A stretch of 64,000 nt of DNA. Source: an uncultured Abiotrophia sp. (GTDB taxonomy: Bacteria; Bacillota; Bacilli; Lactobacillales; Aerococcaceae). The translations under genes and the position numbers were made by a program. The notes under the pieces are model-generated. The model worked only from the letters and a program-made list of their open reading frames with translations. It was not told the DNA's origin and made no database searches. Below are positions 2,640 to 50,327 of this stretch, piece after piece (positions within the stretch are counted from its first letter, which is position 1; each line of letters opens with the position of its first letter). The stretch covers positions 183,263 through 247,262 of the forward strand of contig NZ_CALLVK010000021.1 in the NCBI RefSeq assembly GCF_938010525.1. Direction: 5' to 3'.

Positions 2640-3470
2640 TTAAAGGTACTTAAGTGGCGTCGCTAGTTCTGGATCGGTCATATGAACCTTGAGTCGACGA
2701 CCGACTTCAATATCATGTTGTTCTAGAATACCCGTACAGGTAGAGAGGGCTAATTCCTTGGTGTTATTTTCCTTACTCAAGTGGCCCAAATAAATATCTT
2801 GGGTGCTAGTCCCTAGCATATCGACCATGGCCAGGGCGCCATCTTCATTAGACAAATGGCCCTTGTCACCCAAAATCCGTTGCTTAAGCGACCAAGGATA
2901 GGCGCCATAGCGTAACATTTCAATCTCGTGGTTAGATTCAATCAGATAGGCGTTGGCATTCTGCAAGAGGCTACGAAGTCTTTCGCTGACATAGCCTGAG
3001 TCCGTCAACATGACGAACTGCTTATCTCCCTGTTGGAAGGCATAGAATTGAGGCATGGCCGCATCATGGCTGACTTGATAGGTTAAGACATCCAAGTCCC
3101 CGAAGGTCACCAACTGATCTGGTTCTAACTCGCGACGGTTGTCAGGGTCAATGGCCCCCAGCATCCCATCCATGGCTTGCCAGGTTGCCTTATTAGCATA
3201 TACTGGCAAATTATATTTGCGGGATAGAACGCCTACCCCATGAATATGGTCCTTATGTTCATGCGTCACCAAAATGGCATCCACATCGGCCACACTGCGG
3301 TCAATCTGGGCCATCAAAGATTCTATTTTCTTGCCACTCAAACCCGCATCGACCAAGAGTCGTTGGCGGTCTGACTCCACATAGGTGACATTGCCGCTAC
3401 TACCGGACGCCAAGATTGAAAATCTTAAGCCATTGGCATTCTGGCTTATTTCCTGCGCTCTTACAATCAC
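2640..3470 (-). CDS. Metallo-beta-lactamase-fold hydrolase, YycJ/WalJ-like
   Basis: 276 aa with VTHEHKDH motif. Resembles B. subtilis YycJ along its whole length (ILASGSSGN, NLPVYAN, LTDTGYVSERL, GHLSNEDGA). GTG start in the ORF track with a weak SD. Stand-alone, not next to walRK. Confidence 0.7.
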   Translation of the reverse strand: MIVRAQEISQNANGLRFSILASGSSGNVTYVESDRQRLLVDAGLSGKKIESLMAQIDRSVADVDAILVTHEHKDHIHGVGVLSRKYNLPVYANKATWQAMDGMLGAIDPDNRRELEPDQLVTFGDLDVLTYQVSHDAAMPQFYAFQQGDKQFVMLTDSGYVSERLRSLLQNANAYLIESNHEIEMLRYGAYPWSLKQRILGDKGHLSNEDGALAMVDMLGTSTQDIYLGHLSKENNTKELALSTCTGILEQHDIEVGRRLKVHMTDPELATPLKYL

Positions 3471-3593
3471 ACACTCGCCTACTTCCCTATCTTCAAATCA
3501 CACGCTATCTAAGACCCTCTGGAATTATTTCCTAGTCTCATCTCCACTGTCTAGTATACGCAAAAGGACCCTTCAGTGCTAGTAATATGCGTA

Positions 3594-3623
3594 TAAAAAA
3601 GAGGCCAGTTTGACCTAGCCTCT
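3594..3623 (-). terminator. Rho-independent terminator downstream of the fucosidase gene
   Basis: On the minus strand: gaggcuag...cuggccuc stem (one G-U pair) followed by uuuuuua. Confidence 0.5.
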
Positions 3624-3631
3624 ATATCCTT

Positions 3632-4942
3632 TTAATCCTTCAATTCAATCTTCAGTACGGCATCAATTTGGTTAGGTAGGAGATAAGTATAATGCTCCAC
3701 TTCCCCCATTTGGACGAAGGTCAAGCCTGGAAAGGCCTTGATATTCCAACTATCCGAAACCTGAAGCTCTGAGCCATCATTCAACCAAGAAATACGTTTG
3801 ATTTGATCGCGGTCAATGCCCGGCAAATAAAGGGGCCCAATCGGTTGCTCGAAGAGATGGGCGTAGATGGTCTGGCCTTTGCGCGTATAGTAGCCCCAGT
3901 CAGGTTTTGGCAGGTCTGCATAGCCGCAGCCATAGATACTTTCCGCGTGTAAATTCATCCAGTCAGAAAAATCACGCAGAATAGCCTGACTCTCGGCTGG
4001 GAAGCGACCTTGAGCAGTTGGCCCGATATTGAGCAGCATGTTGCCCTCCTTAGCTACGCACTCCACTAGCTTATGAATGAGCGTTGCCGATGATTTATAG
4101 TGATGGTCTCTAGCGTGATAGGCCCAGTTATTATTCATGGTCAAGCAGAGTTCCCAAGGGACAAAGTCCCCGGCTTCGTTACGGATGCCCTCATGTGGCA
4201 CCACTTGCTCAGGACTGACAAAGTCCCCAGCATAGTCGCTAATGGTCTCCGTTACAATACTGCCAAAGCCCTCGCCAGAAGTCTCTAGACGGTTATCAAT
4301 CAAAATCCAAGGTTGATGGCCCCGAACGAGCTCAATCAATTCTTGGGCCCGCCAAGCCTGTCCACACATTTTGCCATAAGAGAAGTCAAACCAGAGGATA
4401 TCCAATCGGCCATACTGGGTCACTAATTCTTCGACCTGACGGTGCATATATTCAACATAACGATTGAAATCTTGCCCCGGATCAGCTGCTTGGTGCTTGC
4501 GGGGATGATAAGGGTCGCCTGCATGAGGATAGTCAGGGTGGTGCCAGTCTAAGAGACTGTAATAGAGGCCAACCTTTAGTCCTTCAGCACGTGCAGCGTC
4601 AACAAATTCTCGTACCAAGTCACGGCCACAAGGGGTATTAGTTGCCTTGTAGTCCGTCCACTGACTATCAAAGAGGCAGAAACCGTCGTGGTGCTTAGCC
4701 GTCAGAATCATATACTGCATGCCTGCCGCCTTGGCCTGTCGCGCCCATTCCTGAGGTTGGTAGCCCTCGGGATTGAAACAGTCTAGGTAGCTGGGGTATC
4801 TTTCCACGATTCCTGGGTCATGGCTGTAGACCCACTCACCTCGAGCAGGAATGCTGTAAAGCCCCCAGTGTAGGAACATGCCAAAACGCGCCTGACGGAA
4901 CCATTGAGTCCGTTCCATAATTTGAGCCAGAGTCTGGGTCAT
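3632..4942 (-). CDS. Alpha-L-fucosidase, GH29
   Basis: GH29 N-terminal signature ARFGMFLHWGLYS. Start moved to the internal ATG at 4940-4942 (MTQTLAQIMERTQW...) because GGAGGTG sits 8 nt upstream, whereas the ORF-track M1 at 5005 has no SD. Confidence 0.8.
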   Translation of the reverse strand: MTQTLAQIMERTQWFRQARFGMFLHWGLYSIPARGEWVYSHDPGIVERYPSYLDCFNPEGYQPQEWARQAKAAGMQYMILTAKHHDGFCLFDSQWTDYKATNTPCGRDLVREFVDAARAEGLKVGLYYSLLDWHHPDYPHAGDPYHPRKHQAADPGQDFNRYVEYMHRQVEELVTQYGRLDILWFDFSYGKMCGQAWRAQELIELVRGHQPWILIDNRLETSGEGFGSIVTETISDYAGDFVSPEQVVPHEGIRNEAGDFVPWELCLTMNNNWAYHARDHHYKSSATLIHKLVECVAKEGNMLLNIGPTAQGRFPAESQAILRDFSDWMNLHAESIYGCGYADLPKPDWGYYTRKGQTIYAHLFEQPIGPLYLPGIDRDQIKRISWLNDGSELQVSDSWNIKAFPGLTFVQMGEVEHYTYLLPNQIDAVLKIELKD

Positions 4943-6117: not shown

Positions 6118-6984
6118 TCATATAAATTGTATGGAAGGGTGATTCGTAACTTTAATGGCGGGGCTATGGAATAGATATTCTTTTTCTTTACGTACTCTAT
6201 TTACCGAATATCTTATAGTGTACACGTAACTGGGTAAATCTTGATACAGAATTTTTATAGGCTCCTCGTAATCATAAGTCGCAATCCATTTATAGTTATT
6301 AAGCAATTCAATATGATTCCGTAGAACTTCATGGTTTTCATGAAGAAAGAAATTTTTGTATAAATTTTTACCTTGATTATAATATGGAGGATCAAAGAAA
6401 ATAAAAAGATGGTCTGCAGATTTCGATAGCAACACCTCTTTAATTAGTGTGTTTGCTTCTAAATTATAAAGATGTATTCGATTTCTAAATTTACTAATGC
6501 GCTTAATCTTTTTAGTTAGAGTATCTTTATTAAATCTACAGTCTAACGTATACTTACTTAATTGCTCTTTACCTCCAATCGGTCCCCCTGTTATTATGCC
6601 GGATCTATTAGTTCTATTTAAGAACAGTGTAGCAAAGGCAAGTTTAAAATCATACGCGTTACCATCAATTAATTGATGGTATATAGCTTTTTGCTTTTTC
6701 CACATGGAAATATCCACACAAGTATCCTGAATATAATCAATCAATCTGTGAGATTCATATAGTATAGCATACCATAAACTATATATACCTAAATCTAAAT
6801 CATTAATGATTACCTCTTCGACTACACCTGAGAATAATAACTCTAGTCCCGCTCCAAATCCACCAGAATACGGTTCACAGTATATAACATGTTCCATTTC
6901 ATTTTCGTTAATTAAATGCGAAACAAAACCTGCTAGCTGGGTTTTACCCCCTGGATACCTTAATGGCGTTTTCGTATGAGGCAT
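6118..6984 (-). CDS. DNA N6-adenine methyltransferase, D12 class (Dam-like)
   Basis: N-terminal KTPLRYPGGKTQL and catalytic FFDPPYYN (DPPY) motifs. Start set at the internal ATG (MPHTKTPL...) because GGGAGGGGAG sits immediately upstream; the ORF-track M1 at 6999 has no SD. Confidence 0.8.
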   Translation of the reverse strand: MPHTKTPLRYPGGKTQLAGFVSHLINENEMEHVIYCEPYSGGFGAGLELLFSGVVEEVIINDLDLGIYSLWYAILYESHRLIDYIQDTCVDISMWKKQKAIYHQLIDGNAYDFKLAFATLFLNRTNRSGIITGGPIGGKEQLSKYTLDCRFNKDTLTKKIKRISKFRNRIHLYNLEANTLIKEVLLSKSADHLFIFFDPPYYNQGKNLYKNFFLHENHEVLRNHIELLNNYKWIATYDYEEPIKILYQDLPSYVYTIRYSVNRVRKEKEYLFHSPAIKVTNHPSIQFI

Positions 6985-7039
6985 AAACTCCCCTCCCATT
7001 CACAATCCCTAATAGAATAACAGAATTTGCCAATTTTCG

Positions 7040-8683
7040 CTACCTTTTTGATAAATCCCATCTTTCGGGTTGGATTCCGTAGAATTCAGCTGTTTTATGG
7101 AAAACTATGCGTAAATTTTCAATAAAGCTATCTATATCCTTTGTATTACAGTTAATCCAGTCTTCGAGGACCGATTTCCACAATATAGAATGATTATTAA
7201 ACATTTTTTTATTAAACTCTCTCTGTTTTCCTTTATTGCTTTTTCTTTCTTGCTGCCTAGTTTTCAATCTCGACGCGTTCTCATCAATCTCATTACGTAA
7301 TTTTGCTAATTGCTTTCCATTATATCCATCATGATCTAAAATTGTATAATTATCACTCCAAAAACCATCAGATAGGCTATTGCTATGATTAAATGCTAGT
7401 TCTTCCGGAGACAATTTCCCAGGCAAACATATTAGATGCCTATTAAGATCGTTTTTTGATTGATCCCCATCTAATATATAGATTGAACGAAAAGTGAATT
7501 TTAGTAAAACGTCATCATTAGACAGTGTTTTAATAGTCTCTGCGGAAAACGTTGCATTTACCAAGTAAAAGAACTTCTTAACATCTAATTGTGTTTTTCT
7601 CTCCATATATTCAAAGATTAATTCTAAAAATAATCGAGCTTCTGCATCTTCTGTAAAAATGGGTATCTTGTTAGCAAAGCCTCTATCTCGGCCAACAATC
7701 TCATTAAGTTGTGTCTCAATTTTATAGTAGTCAGGATCCTGCATTAGCCTTACTTTGTTGCTATCATCAATTAGATATATGAGTTTTATTTTATCATCCT
7801 TTATGTTTTCTCTTTTTAATAACGTTAAGCTATGTGTCGTAAACATAACCTGAATTCCATAGTCTTTACTATATTCCTTTATCTTTTTTAATAACTTAAT
7901 CTGAAAAGCAGGATGCAAAGAAGCATCAAATTCATCTATAAGTAATATGCTACTGATCCCTTCTTTTTTATCAGTATGCTCTTTAAAATAATATTGTAAA
8001 GATACTAATGCCAACAAAATAATTAGAAGATTATCTTCTCCAGCGGAAATAGTATTAGAATCTATTCCGGGGGATGTGGAATCAAACTCTTGCCTAGTCT
8101 TAATCCCACCCATATTTTGAGGGCGAGAAAACTCAATCTGAAAATTTGTAAACTCATAATATAAATCACTTAACACCTTAAGCATTTCGTCCGGTAATTG
8201 TCCTGTTATTTTTTTTAAAGATTCATCTAAAAGAAACTCTCCATATGGGAAAAGTCTGAAGAGTCCAAGATAGATTACGGGTAGTTCTGGGAGCTTTTCT
8301 CCACTTTTATTACCGTACTTTGGCTTTATTGCAAAACGCATATTCTTATCTGAATTATGCCGTCGAAAGCCTAGCTTCTTATTCTCCGAATAGTACGCAG
8401 TATATAATGTCCCTGTCACACCTTTAGCTGGATCTTTGTATGTTTTTTTATCTCCTCGAGTTAAAGACTCTATCTTAGGATTAGTTAGTTTATTTAGTTG
8501 GCTAATCAATTTCATAATGGGATTACGTTTCGCAATAGGCGCCTTGTATGAGTTACTTACCAAATGCAAGATTGAACTTTTACATGTCCCATTCGTACCC
8601 GCAATAATATTTACATTTTCAGAAAAGTCAATGTCTATATTCTTTAACTTTCGGTATTTTTCTATTTGTAGTTTTTTCACCAT
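7040..8683 (-). CDS. OLD-family-like ATP-dependent nuclease: N-terminal ABC/SMC-type ATPase plus C-terminal Toprim-like domain
   Basis: 547 aa; AGGAGG SD 8 nt upstream. Walker A IIAGTNGTCKSS, signature-like ISAGEDNLL, Walker B ILLIDEFDASLHP, H-loop FTTHS. C-terminal IPIFTEDAEAR (Toprim Glu) and IYILDGDQSK (DxD) ~60 aa apart. Sits 55 bp upstream of, and co-oriented with, the Dam-like MTase. Confidence 0.65.
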   Translation of the reverse strand: MVKKLQIEKYRKLKNIDIDFSENVNIIAGTNGTCKSSILHLVSNSYKAPIAKRNPIMKLISQLNKLTNPKIESLTRGDKKTYKDPAKGVTGTLYTAYYSENKKLGFRRHNSDKNMRFAIKPKYGNKSGEKLPELPVIYLGLFRLFPYGEFLLDESLKKITGQLPDEMLKVLSDLYYEFTNFQIEFSRPQNMGGIKTRQEFDSTSPGIDSNTISAGEDNLLIILLALVSLQYYFKEHTDKKEGISSILLIDEFDASLHPAFQIKLLKKIKEYSKDYGIQVMFTTHSLTLLKRENIKDDKIKLIYLIDDSNKVRLMQDPDYYKIETQLNEIVGRDRGFANKIPIFTEDAEARLFLELIFEYMERKTQLDVKKFFYLVNATFSAETIKTLSNDDVLLKFTFRSIYILDGDQSKNDLNRHLICLPGKLSPEELAFNHSNSLSDGFWSDNYTILDHDGYNGKQLAKLRNEIDENASRLKTRQQERKSNKGKQREFNKKMFNNHSILWKSVLEDWINCNTKDIDSFIENLRIVFHKTAEFYGIQPERWDLSKR

Positions 8684-9047: not shown

Positions 9048-9716
9048 TTATTTTTTTGTTGCGACCAGCTTCAACCGAGTAGGTCGAGGGCAGCAGGTTT
9101 TATCCATTAATAAGTCCACTTGTTCCAGAATGTGTTGGCACTCCATCGGTCCTTGTAAGAGGATGCCGGAGTCTCCGGAACACTGTTCAAAAATAATGAG
9201 TGACGGTGTATCTTGTACTTTCATCTCGAGCGCAATCTTTTGATCACGATAGTAGAGTTCCTTGACGTATTGAGAACGTCGGTCGCTCTCGAAGAGAGCC
9301 AAGTCCAAGCCAATATCACAGGCTAAGTTGGCCAAAAAGTCATCCGTCAGCCGTTCTAAATCAGAATTAATGCGGCTTTGCATTTCGTAGAGGTATTGAC
9401 GGCCACGGCGCTTGCCTTGCAGACCCGCTGCCCGGTAAGCCAAGGTGGCAGAATAAATCTTCTGGAAGATCTCGTTGCGATGACGCAAATCCTGAGGTTC
9501 ATAACCTAGCTGCATCATGTAACGGGCAATGAGGGGCTGACTGGTAAAGCAGAGAATATGCACATCCGTCTTGGCCGGCATTTGCTTAATCGCACGGCTG
9601 AGTTCGCGTTCTACTCTGCGGCAATCTTGCCCTAGGGGGTTAACAAAGAGATACAACTCAAATAATCTGGCCTGACCATGGCCTGATACTTGATAGGCCA
9701 CTTGTTCTTGTGGCAT
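9048..9716 (-). CDS. SpxH/YjbH-like thioredoxin-fold protein (ClpXP adaptor family, DsbA-like)
   Basis: 222 aa. Resembles B. subtilis YjbH (LYLFVNPLGQDC..., TLAYRAAGLQGKRRGRQYLYEMQ vs ALAFKAAELQGRKAGMQFLRNMQ). Confidence 0.55.
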   Translation of the reverse strand: MPQEQVAYQVSGHGQARLFELYLFVNPLGQDCRRVERELSRAIKQMPAKTDVHILCFTSQPLIARYMMQLGYEPQDLRHRNEIFQKIYSATLAYRAAGLQGKRRGRQYLYEMQSRINSDLERLTDDFLANLACDIGLDLALFESDRRSQYVKELYYRDQKIALEMKVQDTPSLIIFEQCSGDSGILLQGPMECQHILEQVDLLMDKTCCPRPTRLKLVATKK

Positions 9717-9868
9717 GCGACATTCCCTCCTCTCCGACTGGATTTCTTAAATTTATCTTAACACAAAGAATAGACAAGTTCTAATGAAATGCCTTATAGC
9801 CCGGCTAAAAGACATTGAGACTGAATCTTGCTCTGCTGGGATCAAGCGGACTGTTCTCCTTTATTTCT

Positions 9869-10072
9869 CAGTTAGCTAGTGGTCCACTCTTTAAATCGAC
9901 CACTAGCCCTCGGCTTTTTCATCGTTTTGGGCTATTTCCGACGTTTTCCATGCAGCCAGTGGTCCACTCTTTAAAGTGGACCACTGGCTCTCGGCTTTCT
10001 CGGCATTTTGGGCCCTTTTCGTCCTTTTCCCATGCTGCTAGTGGTCCACTCCAAAGAGTGGACCACTGGCTC
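9869..10072. repeat. Tandem array (2.5 copies) of an ~83-bp unit, each containing a 12-13 bp perfect stem-loop
   Basis: Copy 2 reads ccagtggtccact-ctttaa-agtggaccactgg (13-bp stem). Copies 1 and 3 carry gctagtggtc.../...gaccactagc variants. Each stem is followed by a T-rich tail ctcggctttytc...ttttggg. The array abuts the stop codon of the CYTH gene. Confidence 0.8.
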
Positions 10073-10667
10073 ATTTATTCTTCTCTAATTTGGCGTAATA
10101 GGCGCTAACTCTGGCAATTTTCTTATCAGCTGCTAGGAGCGGAAAATCGTAGGTGTGGCTTAATTTGGCTATATAGTCTTGAGCCAAGGACAGGTCTTGA
10201 GATTCTAACTCTAGCTCATAATCGACCTGATCACCATAAAGAGTCTGATCTAGCACCAACTCACCCCAGCCTAAGTCTAGGGTCCAGCGATGAGTCTGAA
10301 AACCATAGCGCATAACTAAGTCCTTGGGCTCTAGGCCTACTTGGGCTAAGGCGGCTAAGAGGCCCTTATCCTCAATCCAAGCGCCTGCCAGGCTAGTAGG
10401 CACCGAATCAAGACGCCCCACATTAGTCTGTGTAATCTCCAGAGCCTGGAACTGATCCAAAGCCTGCTTGAAGGTCCACTCACTCACTTGGTCATATTGC
10501 CGTAGGCGCAAGGCAGCCCGGGCATCCTTAAGGGCGCTCTGCTTACTATCGTAATAGTGGTTAACCTGTTGGCGCGGAGCCACCCCATCTAGCCCCAAAC
10601 CCGCCTTAAGTCGAGCAAAGCTCTCAGCCTCCAAGGCAATTTTTACTTCTTGTTCAATCAAGGCCAT
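10071..10667 (-). CDS. CYTH-domain protein (YjbK-like triphosphatase/adenylate cyclase family)
   Basis: N-terminal IEQEVKI (ExExK motif) and a later ELELE; AAAGGGGGG SD. Confidence 0.65.
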   Translation of the reverse strand: MALIEQEVKIALEAESFARLKAGLGLDGVAPRQQVNHYYDSKQSALKDARAALRLRQYDQVSEWTFKQALDQFQALEITQTNVGRLDSVPTSLAGAWIEDKGLLAALAQVGLEPKDLVMRYGFQTHRWTLDLGWGELVLDQTLYGDQVDYELELESQDLSLAQDYIAKLSHTYDFPLLAADKKIARVSAYYAKLEKNK

Positions 10668-10694: not shown

Positions 10695-11606
10695 CTATTG
10701 TTTCTTATCCATGAGATAGTTGAGGATTCTTAGGCCAATCACCCAGCCAATTGCCGAGATTAACAAGATATAGACCCAGCCCATGGCATCTTGCTCAAAA
10801 GGCAAAGGCATATTCATCCCGAAGAAGGAGGTGATAATATCTGGAATCGTCAGGAGAATGGACACAATGGTTAAGAGTTTCATGGTGTCATTCAGGTTGT
10901 TGTTCAGGACGTTGTTATAGGTGCCCGACAATTGATGCAAAATAGTCGAGGTCAACTGGGTCATTTCCACCAATTGCTTGGCTTCAATCAAGGAGTCTTC
11001 CAACTCCTCGCGCGCTGCCTCATCTAGCAGGCGAGACATGAACTGGGTCCGCAGTTGTTCCAACAACACCACATTCTGCTTGGTGGCGGAGACAAAGTAA
11101 ACAACCCCAGTAGCCAAGTCCGACAGGGCGAAGAGGTTCTGCTTGGTGGTCTTCTGTCTGAGAACCTGGTTAAGCTGGTCGCGCTCCTGATTGATTTTCT
11201 CAACCAAAGGGAAATACTGTTCAGACACGGTATAGAGTGAAGCGAATAGGAAGGTAAAGACCGAAACCCCAGGGTTGGCATCTAGATAACGGCTGAATTC
11301 TGGGATTAGGTAAGCATTGGCCTCATTGCTGATCGTAATGAGTCGGTTGGGCTGGACAATAAAGGTCATTGGCACCGTCTCATAGTGGTAATCCTGTTTA
11401 ATGGGATTAGGGACATTATAGATGATAATAAAGGTATTGCGTTCACGGTCATATTCGGTCCGAGCCCGTTCATTACGGTCCAGGGCGTATTCGACAATCT
11501 CTTCATCTAAGCCATATTGACTGAGGAGGTCCGGCCGGGAGGCAATGGTGTCCACGTCAATATTGAGCCAGCTATCTGTCTCGTTGATTGGTCGCATGCT
11601 AATCAT
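10695..11606 (-). CDS. CorA-family divalent cation (Mg2+/Co2+) transporter
   Basis: 303 aa; FFGMNMP (GMN motif) before the C-terminal TM pair; AAAGGAGG SD. Confidence 0.75.
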   Translation of the reverse strand: MISMRPINETDSWLNIDVDTIASRPDLLSQYGLDEEIVEYALDRNERARTEYDRERNTFIIIYNVPNPIKQDYHYETVPMTFIVQPNRLITISNEANAYLIPEFSRYLDANPGVSVFTFLFASLYTVSEQYFPLVEKINQERDQLNQVLRQKTTKQNLFALSDLATGVVYFVSATKQNVVLLEQLRTQFMSRLLDEAAREELEDSLIEAKQLVEMTQLTSTILHQLSGTYNNVLNNNLNDTMKLLTIVSILLTIPDIITSFFGMNMPLPFEQDAMGWVYILLISAIGWVIGLRILNYLMDKKQ

Positions 11607-11621
11607 GGGGAGCCTCCTTTC

Positions 11622-12530
11622 TTATTTTCGGGCCAAGAGATTTTTGAGGACGCCATTAATCACTAAGCATCCAGCAATACTAATAATCAAGGTAATCAAC
11701 CAGCCCAGAGGATGATTGGCAAAGGGAATCGGCACGTTCATACCGAAGAAGCCGGTCACAAAGGTCGGTACCATGAGGATAATCTCTAGCTTGGTCAGAA
11801 TTCGAAAAATATCGTTCAAGTTATTATTTAAGACATTGTTATAGGTGTCTGACAGTTGTTGTAGGGTTTGGCCGGTCAACTGGGTCATTTCCACTAACTG
11901 GCGCGCTTCAATCAGGGTATCTTCCAATTGCTCCCGCTCCACTTCTGTTAGCGAGCGGAAAACCAATAAGGTCCGTAATTGCTCCAAGAGGACGGTATTC
12001 TGCTTGCTGGCAGTGATGAAATAGACCATGCCGGTCTCCATATCCGATAAGGCCAGGAGATTCTCCCTCGTGGTCTTGTCACGCAAGAGCCGGGTCAACT
12101 GATCTCGTTCACGGTTGATTTCTTCAACCAAAGGGAAGTACTCATCCGTCACCCGATAGAGGGCTTCGAATAGAAAGCCGAAGAGGCTTTGCTCTGGCTC
12201 TAACTCTAGATTGCGATGCATACGTTGTAAAATATAGGCATTTTCCTCGTTACTGATTGTAATCAGGCGATGCTTTTGAACGATGAAGGTCATCGGTACG
12301 GTCTCATAGTGCCGGGTCTGCTTAATGCGATTGGGCACATTGAAAATCAGGACGAAGGTATGGCTCTGGCGATCATAATCCACCCGAGCCCGCTCATTAC
12401 GGTCGGCCGCATATTCGATTATCTCATCGTCCAAGTCGAACTCCTCGATCCACTCGGGATGTTTTTCTAGGGCATCCGCTTCAATATTAATCCAGACATC
12501 CTGGGCGTTCAGGGGGACACTGCGAATCAT
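11622..12530 (-). CDS. CorA-family divalent cation transporter (tandem paralog)
   Basis: FFGMNVP GMN motif; about 50% identical to its neighbour by eye. Start set at the internal ATG (MIRSVPLN...) with AAAGGAGGG 8 nt upstream. Confidence 0.75.
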   Translation of the reverse strand: MIRSVPLNAQDVWINIEADALEKHPEWIEEFDLDDEIIEYAADRNERARVDYDRQSHTFVLIFNVPNRIKQTRHYETVPMTFIVQKHRLITISNEENAYILQRMHRNLELEPEQSLFGFLFEALYRVTDEYFPLVEEINRERDQLTRLLRDKTTRENLLALSDMETGMVYFITASKQNTVLLEQLRTLLVFRSLTEVEREQLEDTLIEARQLVEMTQLTGQTLQQLSDTYNNVLNNNLNDIFRILTKLEIILMVPTFVTGFFGMNVPIPFANHPLGWLITLIISIAGCLVINGVLKNLLARK

Positions 12531-12645
12531 GGCGCCACCCTCCTTTCCTATTTTTCTCACCTCCTTATTATACCGAAATTGGACTTAAAAAGTAAACGTA
12601 AAGGGTCCTTACCCAAAAAGGATAAAAATTCTGTTAGAAATAACA

Positions 12646-49896: not shown

Positions 49897-50327
49897 TTTC
49901 CATACCTCACAGTCTGCCCTAACCAACCTAATGCCGTTAGGACTTTAATTAATAGACTATTAATATGGCATCATTATACCAAAGTTCTCGAAACTTAGTA
50001 AAGCTTTCACCTCATTCATTCTTGCTAGATTTTATCTTATACACCCGATAAAAACCTGATAAATCAACATTTCATCTACTCACACCTTGTATTTTATCAA
50101 CTTTCTGTTAACTTTCAGATTTTGAATGTTCCGTCCCACTAAATTTACCACAAAACTTCTGTTTATATCTCTACTATGAACTTTACTAGGCGAGAACACT
50201 TGTCACCATCTCAGCATCTGGTAAGCCTAAGCCAATTCATAGATAGGAGAATATTCGGGTTTTCCATTCGCGTCTCCAATTCTAACTTAGCTACACAAAT
50301 TTTCATCATATACACAACATATCTAAA

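Follow-up and report, generated by a model that had tools for sequence, protein, structure and literature searches.

Repetitive extragenic palindromic (REP) sequences, of which Escherichia coli K12 holds 584 copies, have a conserved tetranucleotide, GTAG, 5′ to the foot of the palindrome (PMC3333891), and they are targets of several insertion sequence (IS) families, IS256 included (PMC1525189). The Neisseria intergenic mosaic elements (NIMEs) are built of dRS3 and RS segments, and a role as binding site for a recombinase or protein has been put forward for their inverted repeat (PMC1797815). Here, we analyzed a tandem array of palindromic units located between a CYTH-domain gene and an SpxH/YjbH-like gene (hereafter spxH) in 64,000 nucleotides of an uncultured Abiotrophia sp. 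(contig NZ_CALLVK010000021.1; this whole stretch is called the window below). The array belongs to an Abiotrophia-specific family of arrays dispersed over the chromosome, of which it is the CYTH-spxH member. The arms of its palindrome are kept by conservation at the sequence level, not by compensatory stem changes. On balance, and judging from sequence comparisons, we lean toward an interspersed repeat similar to NIMEs or to REPs and the bacterial interspersed mosaic elements (BIMEs), in which the palindrome is a putative DNA-level target of a sequence-specific protein.

The family was delimited by a scan for the pattern AGTGGWCCACT-N4-8-AGTGGWCCACT in one genome per species, with 596 Gb searched, which matched 68 loci. 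All loci with several copies at 81/82-nt spacing lay in three Abiotrophia genomes, namely Abiotrophia defectiva ATCC 49176, a second ‘A. defectiva’ represented by a metagenome-assembled genome (MAG), and an uncultured Abiotrophia sp. MAG, and on one contig binned as Atopobium. The flanks of this contig match Abiotrophia loci, and it was probably mis-binned. ATCC 49176 has at least 34 arrays and at least 105 full palindromes in the 25 fetched 8-kb blocks, which represent part of the genome. Arrays consist of one to eight units, are all intergenic and strictly head-to-tail, with the tails in the same orientation. A unit is composed of a 34-bp palindrome, GCYAGTGGWCCACT-N6-AGTGGWCCACTRGC, and a purine-rich tail of 47/48 nt; full units are 82 nt (n = 77), 81 nt (n = 63) or 80 nt (n = 2) long. 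At the array flanks, no target-site duplications, conserved terminal sequence or terminal modules were evident, and some arrays terminate in a collapsed half-palindrome.

A scan of Rfam gave no meaningful match to the window array or to the family, the plasmid and phage collections held no family copy apart from one isolated viral-contig match, and a literature search returned no paper on Abiotrophia repeats or on the palindrome sequence. Relative to these sources, the repeat family is apparently new to description. A preliminary description of the window array had named a REP/RUP-like miniature repeat family (RUP, repeat unit of pneumococcus) as one candidate, to be checked by looking for further palindrome copies. 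The dozens of arrays found per Abiotrophia genome, together with the strain-variable copy number at the locus, bear this candidate out.

All contigs with an identical CYTH or SpxH, or with a CYTH 87-91% identical, carry the array directly after the TGA stop codon. The spacer between CYTH and spxH measures 271, ~351 or ~517 nt in the Abiotrophia contigs examined, corresponding to two, three or five hairpins. In Fundicoccus, the nearest outside relative (CYTH 39% identical), this spacer is 87 nt long and has no repeat. Since the array is present in all Abiotrophia contigs examined, with a varying number of hairpins, it is an old, stable occupant of the spacer, whose copy number is strain-variable. 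Unit numbers also differ between genomes at other shared loci (8/4/2, 7/5 and 5/8). The arrays behave as variable-number tandem repeats (VNTRs), which may lengthen and shorten by slippage or unequal recombination between units. At the 18 loci common to at least two genomes, with flanks differing by ~6%, no empty/filled site polymorphism was seen. Several assemblies break within the array, and several metagenome and Sequence Read Archive contigs (L007, L008, L089, L092) end 110-115 nt past the CYTH stop codon, inside it.

The likeness to the REP/BIME elements of enterobacteria and pseudomonads includes a palindrome of 30-40 nt (34 nt in Abiotrophia), a strictly extragenic location in very many copies, clustering with a strain-variable number of tandem units per locus, a preference for gene ends and convergent gene pairs, and use as a target by IS elements, the IS256 family included (PMC3333891, PMC1525189). 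However, the Abiotrophia consensus reads ...GA/GCYAGTGG and ...CCACTRGC/T (slash, edge of the palindrome), with no GTAG or CTAC. The Abiotrophia arrays are strictly head-to-tail with a fixed 81/82-bp period, whereas in BIMEs, REP and iREP stand in inverse orientation with linkers. Furthermore, in Abiotrophia, a Firmicute, the arms are self-palindromic and the linker has four phased A-tracts, and no gene for a REP-associated tyrosine transposase (RAYT) was among the listed Pfam families of 51 open reading frames (ORFs) flanking arrays. With NIMEs, the family shares the alternation of a short conserved inverted repeat with longer segments of many families, regular G+C waves, array lengths that differ at syntenic loci, and IS insertion into arrays (PMC1797815). 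The sequences are unrelated, dRS3 being a 20-bp repeat (ATTCCCN8GGGAAT) and the Abiotrophia repeat 34 bp long; RS segments range from 19 to 214 bp, whereas the Abiotrophia tails have a fixed length of 47/48 bp and a common A-tract pattern, and the Abiotrophia arrays have no linked recombinase of the phage or IS110 type. The family lacks the defining sequence features of both systems, with no GTAG, no REP/iREP alternation and no dRS3.

Other repeats are similar in behavior. The VNTRs known as mycobacterial interspersed repetitive units (MIRUs) are intergenic tandem units of 40-100 bp that share the orientation of the genes beside them, adjoin stop codons and differ in copy number between strains, as the Abiotrophia units do. 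MIRUs have short ORFs overlapping the neighboring stop and start codons, and no long conserved palindrome. In Abiotrophia, by contrast, 81-nt (63) and 82-nt (77) units are mixed and no reading frame is kept; the dispersed VNTR behavior is shared. BOX of Streptococcus pneumoniae and STAR of Staphylococcus aureus are intergenic repeats of Firmicutes with tandem modules, a stable predicted structure and strain-variable copy number, in all of which the Abiotrophia arrays are alike. BOX has terminal modules, boxA and boxC, around a reiterated boxB, whereas no terminal modules were seen at Abiotrophia array flanks; STAR consists of short GC-rich direct repeats and differs from the 34-bp palindrome of Abiotrophia. 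Rho-independent terminators share the G+C-rich stem-loop at gene ends, but the Abiotrophia consensus has no stem-adjacent U-tract on either strand, and many arrays follow a genuine terminator. In clustered regularly interspaced short palindromic repeats (CRISPR), spacers are unique, unlike the Abiotrophia tails, which are 74% identical within arrays and follow a family-wide A-tract pattern.

Covariation was tested on 163 units of confident orientation (gene-sense strand) and on an alignment of 75 diverse units. Among the 163 units, stem pair 3/32 is C.A in 83, T-A in 34, C-G in 24 and T.G in 21, and Watson-Crick pairs are rarer than expected for two independent sides (odds ratio 0.47, p = 0.04). 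Pair 9/26 is T-A in 115, A.A in 22 and C.A in 18 units, and pair 15/20 is C-G in 79 and T.G in 73. The tolerated wobbles implicate opposite strands at different pairs, as C.A at 3/32 pairs only antisense and T.G at 15/20 only sense, and thus RNA of neither strand is favored. The stem in the 75-unit alignment is 94.6% paired and nine of its 15 pairs are invariant; the covariation score was 0.053 vs 0.055 shuffled, with 399 of the 500 shuffles at least as high, and RNAalifold left pairs 3/32 and 9/26 unpaired. The preliminary description had noted a paired stem change between the window copies, and had concluded that compensatory changes imply selection on the secondary structure. Such a change does exist in the window, yet it is limited to a single base pair (3/32) of three copies, and the two sides of this pair vary independently across the family. 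With no signal in the 163 oriented units or in the 75-unit alignment, compensatory stem evolution was rejected. Moreover, the terminal hairpin of the CYTH-spxH locus shows uncompensated 5′-arm changes across strains (TCGAT, TTCAC, ACCAC, TCGAC), next to a constant 3′ arm.

Between arrays of one genome, the arms are 94% identical and the tails 49%, compared with 30% for shuffled tails. In position-matched units of loci shared between genomes, the arms diverge by 3.9%, the loops by 33% and the tails by 23%, with flanks diverging by ~6%; unit turnover may explain part of the excess in tails and loops. The most invariant block is GAGTGGACCACTRGCT, at unit positions 20-35. Each arm is itself an 11-bp palindrome, AGTGG-W-CCACT, the chance of which, with five nested pairs, is ~4^-5 for a given arm. 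In duplex form, the palindrome presents two identical two-fold-symmetric 11-bp sites 17 bp apart, and as a hairpin stem it presents the same site once. Avoidance of the embedded GGWCC was considered as a hint of a restriction system and dropped, the count in the window being unremarkable (92 observed vs 113 expected).

Rare collapsed units of ~64 nt, often at array ends, have the 34-nt palindrome cut to a single 11-mer, GCYAGTGGNCCACTRGC (L024, position 5830; L052, 4231; L087, 2666; array ends in L083, L054 and L076). Such units fit slippage between the two arms, which are almost identical, and would be its expected product. The 11-mer was also found in unrelated repeats. Five Filimonas MAG loci (L044, L053, L056, L070, L078) have it in a ~50-nt palindrome, AAAAGAGTGGTCCACTTTT-N-AAAAGTGGACCACTCTTTT, that looks like a bidirectional terminator, and one Chloroflexi MAG contig (L088) has it in six tandem 15-mers, CAGTGGTCCACTAGY. 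Given a search of 596 Gb, both occurrences are probably coincidence.

The tails carry four A-tracts at unit positions 43-45, 52-55, 62-65 and 72-75, ~10 nt apart and each >90% A or A/T, with variable G/C-rich hexamers between them, and the unit ends in GA. Some tail subfamilies have T-tracts at the A-tract positions. No tail structure was found by RNAalifold in the 75-unit alignment, and helices suspected by eye around A-tracts 1 and 2 were discarded, as they pair in 40% and 43% of the units, below shuffled values. The Fourier peaks proved to be harmonics of the 81.5-nt period. In the window, the strongest signals of helically phased A/T-tracts lie outside the repeat array and exceed it, at ~49,920-50,100 and ~7,250-7,500. 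Both segments are among the most curved of the window in a wedge model (Bolshoy parameters), and an 11-nt tandem repeat, ACCCGATAAAA, is located at 50043-50063.

For the window array, Tandem Repeats Finder gave positions 9874-10072 (period 81, 2.5 copies, score 258); the array reported earlier at 9869-10072 is therefore real, with a unit of 81/82 nt and not ~83. Its three palindromes of 33/34 nt (9875-9907, 9955-9988 and 10037-10070) are spaced 80-82 nt apart. The core pattern AGTGGTCCACT-N6-AGTGGACCACT has two matches in the window vs none in 100 dinucleotide-preserving shuffles, and a search of the 64 kb with the family unit profile returned this array as the sole match. The array starts at the first base after the CYTH stop codon, as had been described (tca at 10071-10073 adjoins it), and 158 nt of unique sequence separate its end from spxH. 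The tail had been called T-rich, which holds for the plus strand; the genes on both sides lie on the minus strand, and a unit read in their sense consists of a hairpin and then a tail rich in A and in purines. Perfect stems of 13 bp had also been claimed. Only the middle copy is a perfect palindrome (stem 14-15 bp), whereas the copy at 9875-9907 has a perfect stem of just 10 bp, and the copy at 10037-10070 has one G.U pair on the plus strand and a C.A mismatch on the gene-sense strand. Folded singly, the hairpins reach −15 to −29 kcal/mol as RNA (z ~−7 to −8) and −9 to −17 as DNA, with z ~−6 to −8 over both. In the family profile, unit positions 81-82 are G in 91% and A in 99%. The features are given below in gene order, with genes taken from simple ORF calls.

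10071..10667, minus strand: CYTH-domain gene, 198 aa, upstream of the array (PF01928).
10071..10073, minus strand: CYTH stop codon TGA (plus strand tca), at the position where the unit-end consensus, (N)GA, stands before each hairpin of the family.
10037..10070, minus strand: hairpin 1, first in gene order, GCCAGTGGTCCACT-CTTTGG-AGTGGACCACTAGC; pair 3/32 is C.A on the sense strand and G.U on the plus strand; −24.9 kcal/mol as sense RNA.
9989..10036, minus strand: tail 1, 48 nt, sense AGCATGGGAAAAGGACGAAAAGGGCCCAAAATGCCGAGAAAGCCGAGA; purine-rich, four A-tracts ~10 nt apart and a GA end (family position profile).
9955..9988, minus strand: hairpin 2, perfect 34-nt palindrome, GCCAGTGGTCCACT-TTAAAG-AGTGGACCACTGGC; −28.7 kcal/mol.
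9908..9954, minus strand: tail 2, 47 nt, TGCATGGAAAACGTCGGAAATAGCCCAAAACGATGAAAAAGCCGAGG (family position profile).
9875..9907, minus strand: hairpin 3, terminal and degenerate, GCTAGTGGTCGAT-TTAAAG-AGTGGACCACTAGC; 5′ arm decayed, 3′ arm intact; −19.9 kcal/mol.
9717..9874, minus strand: unique, strain-conserved spacer from the last hairpin to the spxH start, outside the repeat (strain comparison).
9048..9716, minus strand: SpxH/YjbH-like thioredoxin-fold gene, 222 aa, downstream of the array (PF13743).

The spxH promoter and leader are presumably located in the spacer at 9717..9874, where no consensus promoter was found. No terminator was found between CYTH and the array, and hence the three hairpins should be transcribed at the 3′ end of the CYTH mRNA. 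Judged by consensus criteria, the earlier suggestion of a multi-hairpin terminator did not hold. An intrinsic terminator scan of the minus (gene) strand of the array gave no match, and no U-tract follows the stems; on the plus strand one of the three hairpins qualifies, its T-run being supplied by the CYTH coding sequence.

Array orientation was defined as forward on the strand with the A-rich tail. Arrays between same-direction genes were co-oriented in 24 cases and opposed in four, and a further 19 arrays lie between convergent and five between divergent genes. Arrays are thus found 3′ of genes and avoid divergent promoter regions. A polarity was also seen with respect to replication. On the 1.59-Mb scaffold of ATCC 49176 (NZ_KI535340.1; L047 to L066), arrays are in reverse at 616-910 kb and forward at 1024-1285 kb, and the GC skew turns from negative to positive in the same interval; on a second ATCC scaffold, all nine arrays agree with the skew. 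As the array orientation switches with the sign of the skew, the direction of ~30 of 33 arrays is that of the leading strand. Among the 50 confidently oriented arrays, 37 agree with the local GC skew. All arrays of the 1.59-Mb scaffold, except one weak match, lie within 616-1285 kb, around the skew switch that marks the presumed origin, with a dense cluster at 1120-1200 kb. This post-hoc observation suggests that arrays cluster near the origin. The statistics pool three closely related genomes (flanks ~94% identical), whose loci are not independent. The few arrays discordant between the replication and transcription directions split three vs three, in IS-gene or convergent contexts, and did not separate the two polarities.

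The arrays are hot spots for an IS256-family element. This 1.2-kb element, with a Mutator/IS256-type transposase (Transposase_mut), is inserted in array tails and flanked by 8-bp target duplications (CAAAAACC, TAAACCGG). Its copies occur in both orientations and at varying tail positions (L022 at ~2956-4070, L029, L048, L062, L075, L085 and others). Among the distinct IS ends in the fetched loci, a sample biased towards arrays, 21 of 25 abut family units, and the other four are tandem IS-IS junctions. The IS256 transposase is the only recurrent neighbor gene of the arrays (51 flanking ORFs, top 25 of 87 Pfam families). A comparison of the IS256 ends with the palindrome showed no similarity.

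A palindrome that is constant in sequence without compensatory change, while its loop and tail drift, is most likely a protein recognition site. The candidate partner would be a sequence-specific, probably dimeric, DNA-binding protein, and its target could be either the linear duplex, with the two 11-bp sites, or an extruded or single-stranded hairpin, with the 11-bp duplex once. A possible resemblance of the half-sites, AGTGG/CCACT, to operators of the GntR/HutC type was given no weight. From the phased A-tracts and the constant length of the units, DNA shape or spacing seems to be constrained. The family would then be functionally analogous to REP/BIME or NIME arrays. At the CYTH-spxH locus, the hairpins in the 3′ end of the CYTH mRNA could block 3′-exonucleases, and would not terminate transcription. 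Such a barrier is plausible as a local consequence, not as the reason for the existence of the family.

Several points weigh against this interpretation. The palindrome-binding protein remains putative, and a palindromic protein site alone explains neither the polarity of the arrays nor a 3′ arm more conserved than the 5′ arm. There was no RAYT/Y1 transposase or other recurrent partner among the top 25 of 87 Pfam families in the 51 array-flanking ORFs. Static curvature, calculated with the same wedge model, showed no excess in arrays (0.916 vs 0.922 in background DNA). Static bending by phased A-tracts was therefore rejected, and the constraint on the A-tracts is not accounted for by the model. 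The origin was positioned by GC skew in 8-kb blocks only, and the orientation statistics are inflated by orthologous loci common to the three genomes. Finally, an RNA-level role would also be compatible with the shared orientation of arrays and genes, and with the 23 of 50 arrays placed right after a stop codon or lacking a terminator upstream.

Among the rival explanations, this RNA-level role in the 3′ untranslated region ranks first, followed by a selfish RAYT-type repeat and then by a polar antisense terminator. It would mean that the transcribed hairpins block 3′-to-5′ exonucleases and stabilize or differentially process the upstream mRNA, as in the classical REP effect; at the window locus, the array would set CYTH mRNA stability and read-through from CYTH to spxH. 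We regard this as unlikely, even though 24 of the 28 arrays in same-direction contexts share the orientation of the upstream gene, the RNA hairpins are highly stable (−20 to −29 kcal/mol), and the absence of a U-tract on the sense strand would let transcription read through. Of 50 arrays with a co-oriented upstream gene, 23 have no terminator between stop codon and array, and 12 of these, the window array included, lie at most 40 nt from the stop. The remaining 27 arrays come after a hairpin of that gene that resembles an intrinsic terminator, a point against a general RNA role. Against it are also the lack of covariation, with sequence and not pairing conserved, and the wobble tolerance at pairs 3/32 and 15/20, which implicates opposite strands. 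Furthermore, the nested two-fold symmetry of the arms has no RNA rationale, T-tracts replace A-tracts in some tail subfamilies, tail structure is unsupported, and no Rfam family matches.

Next comes the doubtful possibility of a selfish, non-autonomous mobile repeat similar to REPINs (REP doublets forming hairpins) or miniature inverted-repeat transposable elements. The palindrome would be the hairpin of a trans-acting transposase, for example of the Y1/RAYT type acting on the lagging-strand template, and the arrays would be by-products, without host function and tolerated only at gene ends. A genus-restricted, multi-copy and strictly intergenic family is in line with this view, as are the assembly contigs that break within arrays. 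The polarity follows the replication direction, like IS200/IS605-type single-strand transposition, and stem mismatches are common, RAYT binding to REP needing a stem mismatch (PMC3333891). However, the 18 shared loci show no empty/filled polymorphism in spite of the ~6% flank difference, and the CYTH-spxH site is filled in every Abiotrophia contig examined. Arms remain intact in old arrays while the tails of the same units drift, which turnover explains poorly. In addition, no target-site duplications or terminal modules are evident, no recurrent adjacent transposase but IS256 was among the listed Pfam families, with IS256 ends unlike the palindrome, and the plasmid and phage collections searched gave no copy, apart from the viral-contig match mentioned above.

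Less probable again, the arrays could be a host-selected, polar element of chromosome architecture, in which tandem two-fold-symmetric protein sites and phased A-tracts, oriented with the replication fork and close to the origin, manage supercoiling or replication-transcription traffic at gene ends. They might act, for example, as preferred sites of a topoisomerase or nucleoid protein. To our knowledge, no chromosome-architecture system of this kind has been described for Firmicutes.

A polar transcription barrier, formed by the hairpins and the pyrimidine-rich, U-tract tails of the window plus strand, could stop antisense or head-on transcription into gene ends, either intrinsically or with Rho. 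This would be the terminator or insulator of the preliminary description. In its favor, tails are ~75% pyrimidine with U4 tracts on the reverse strand, arrays are polar relative to genes and replication, 19 of them have convergent genes on either side, and the plus-strand terminator scan accepts one of the three hairpins of the window. Yet in the reverse-strand family consensus (TC-N4-C-TTTT), ~8 nt separate the stem from the first T-tract, a greater distance than a canonical intrinsic terminator allows, the sole plus-strand match borrows its T-run from the CYTH coding sequence, and for 11 of the 28 convergent downstream genes, a terminator of the gene itself precedes the array. These observations make such a barrier quite improbable.

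A tandem small-RNA locus, as also proposed in the preliminary description, or a degenerate or orphan CRISPR-like array, which that description rightly dismissed, would fit the regular alternation of a conserved palindromic 34-mer with ~48-nt segments and the type I-C cas genes located two genes away in some strains, but the homology of the ‘spacers’ within and between arrays, with their common A-tract pattern, effectively refutes this reading. Also against it are the number of arrays, which exceeds 30 per genome without a link to cas genes, and the lack of promoter-like sites in the array or per unit and of an Rfam match.

Gene content just downstream of spxH is strain-dependent. At this place, the window encodes on the minus strand (6118-8683) a 547-aa AAA_15/AAA_21 ATPase (GajA/PtuA/AriA-like) and a 293-aa D12 adenine methyltransferase, whose best PADLOC match was PD-Lambda-5_B (E 5e-104). 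In related contigs (L012, L015, L017, L001, L003, L016, L020), this slot holds cas3 and cas5d (type I-C), an AAA_30/SLFN-like helicase, or no insert before the Mga and phosphotransferase system genes, and it looks like a defense-island hot spot. Directly upstream of CYTH, two adjacent CorA-family paralogues are encoded on the minus strand (10695-12560), with 303 and 312 aa by ORF calls and 303 and 302 aa in related contigs. This CorA pair is kept in all Abiotrophia contigs seen, and the CYTH neighbors in Fundicoccus are RelA_SpoT, NAD kinase and others.

With these results, a structured regulatory RNA between CYTH and spxH is no longer suggested. They add a well-defined repeat family to Abiotrophia, a little-studied but clinically relevant oral bacterium and agent of endocarditis. 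The family fragments short-read Abiotrophia assemblies, its loci are usable as VNTR markers for strain typing, and its arrays mark preferred landing sites of an IS256-family element. With conserved arms beside drifting loops and tails, a fixed unit length and a replication polarity, it offers a clean case for what keeps REP-like palindromes constant.

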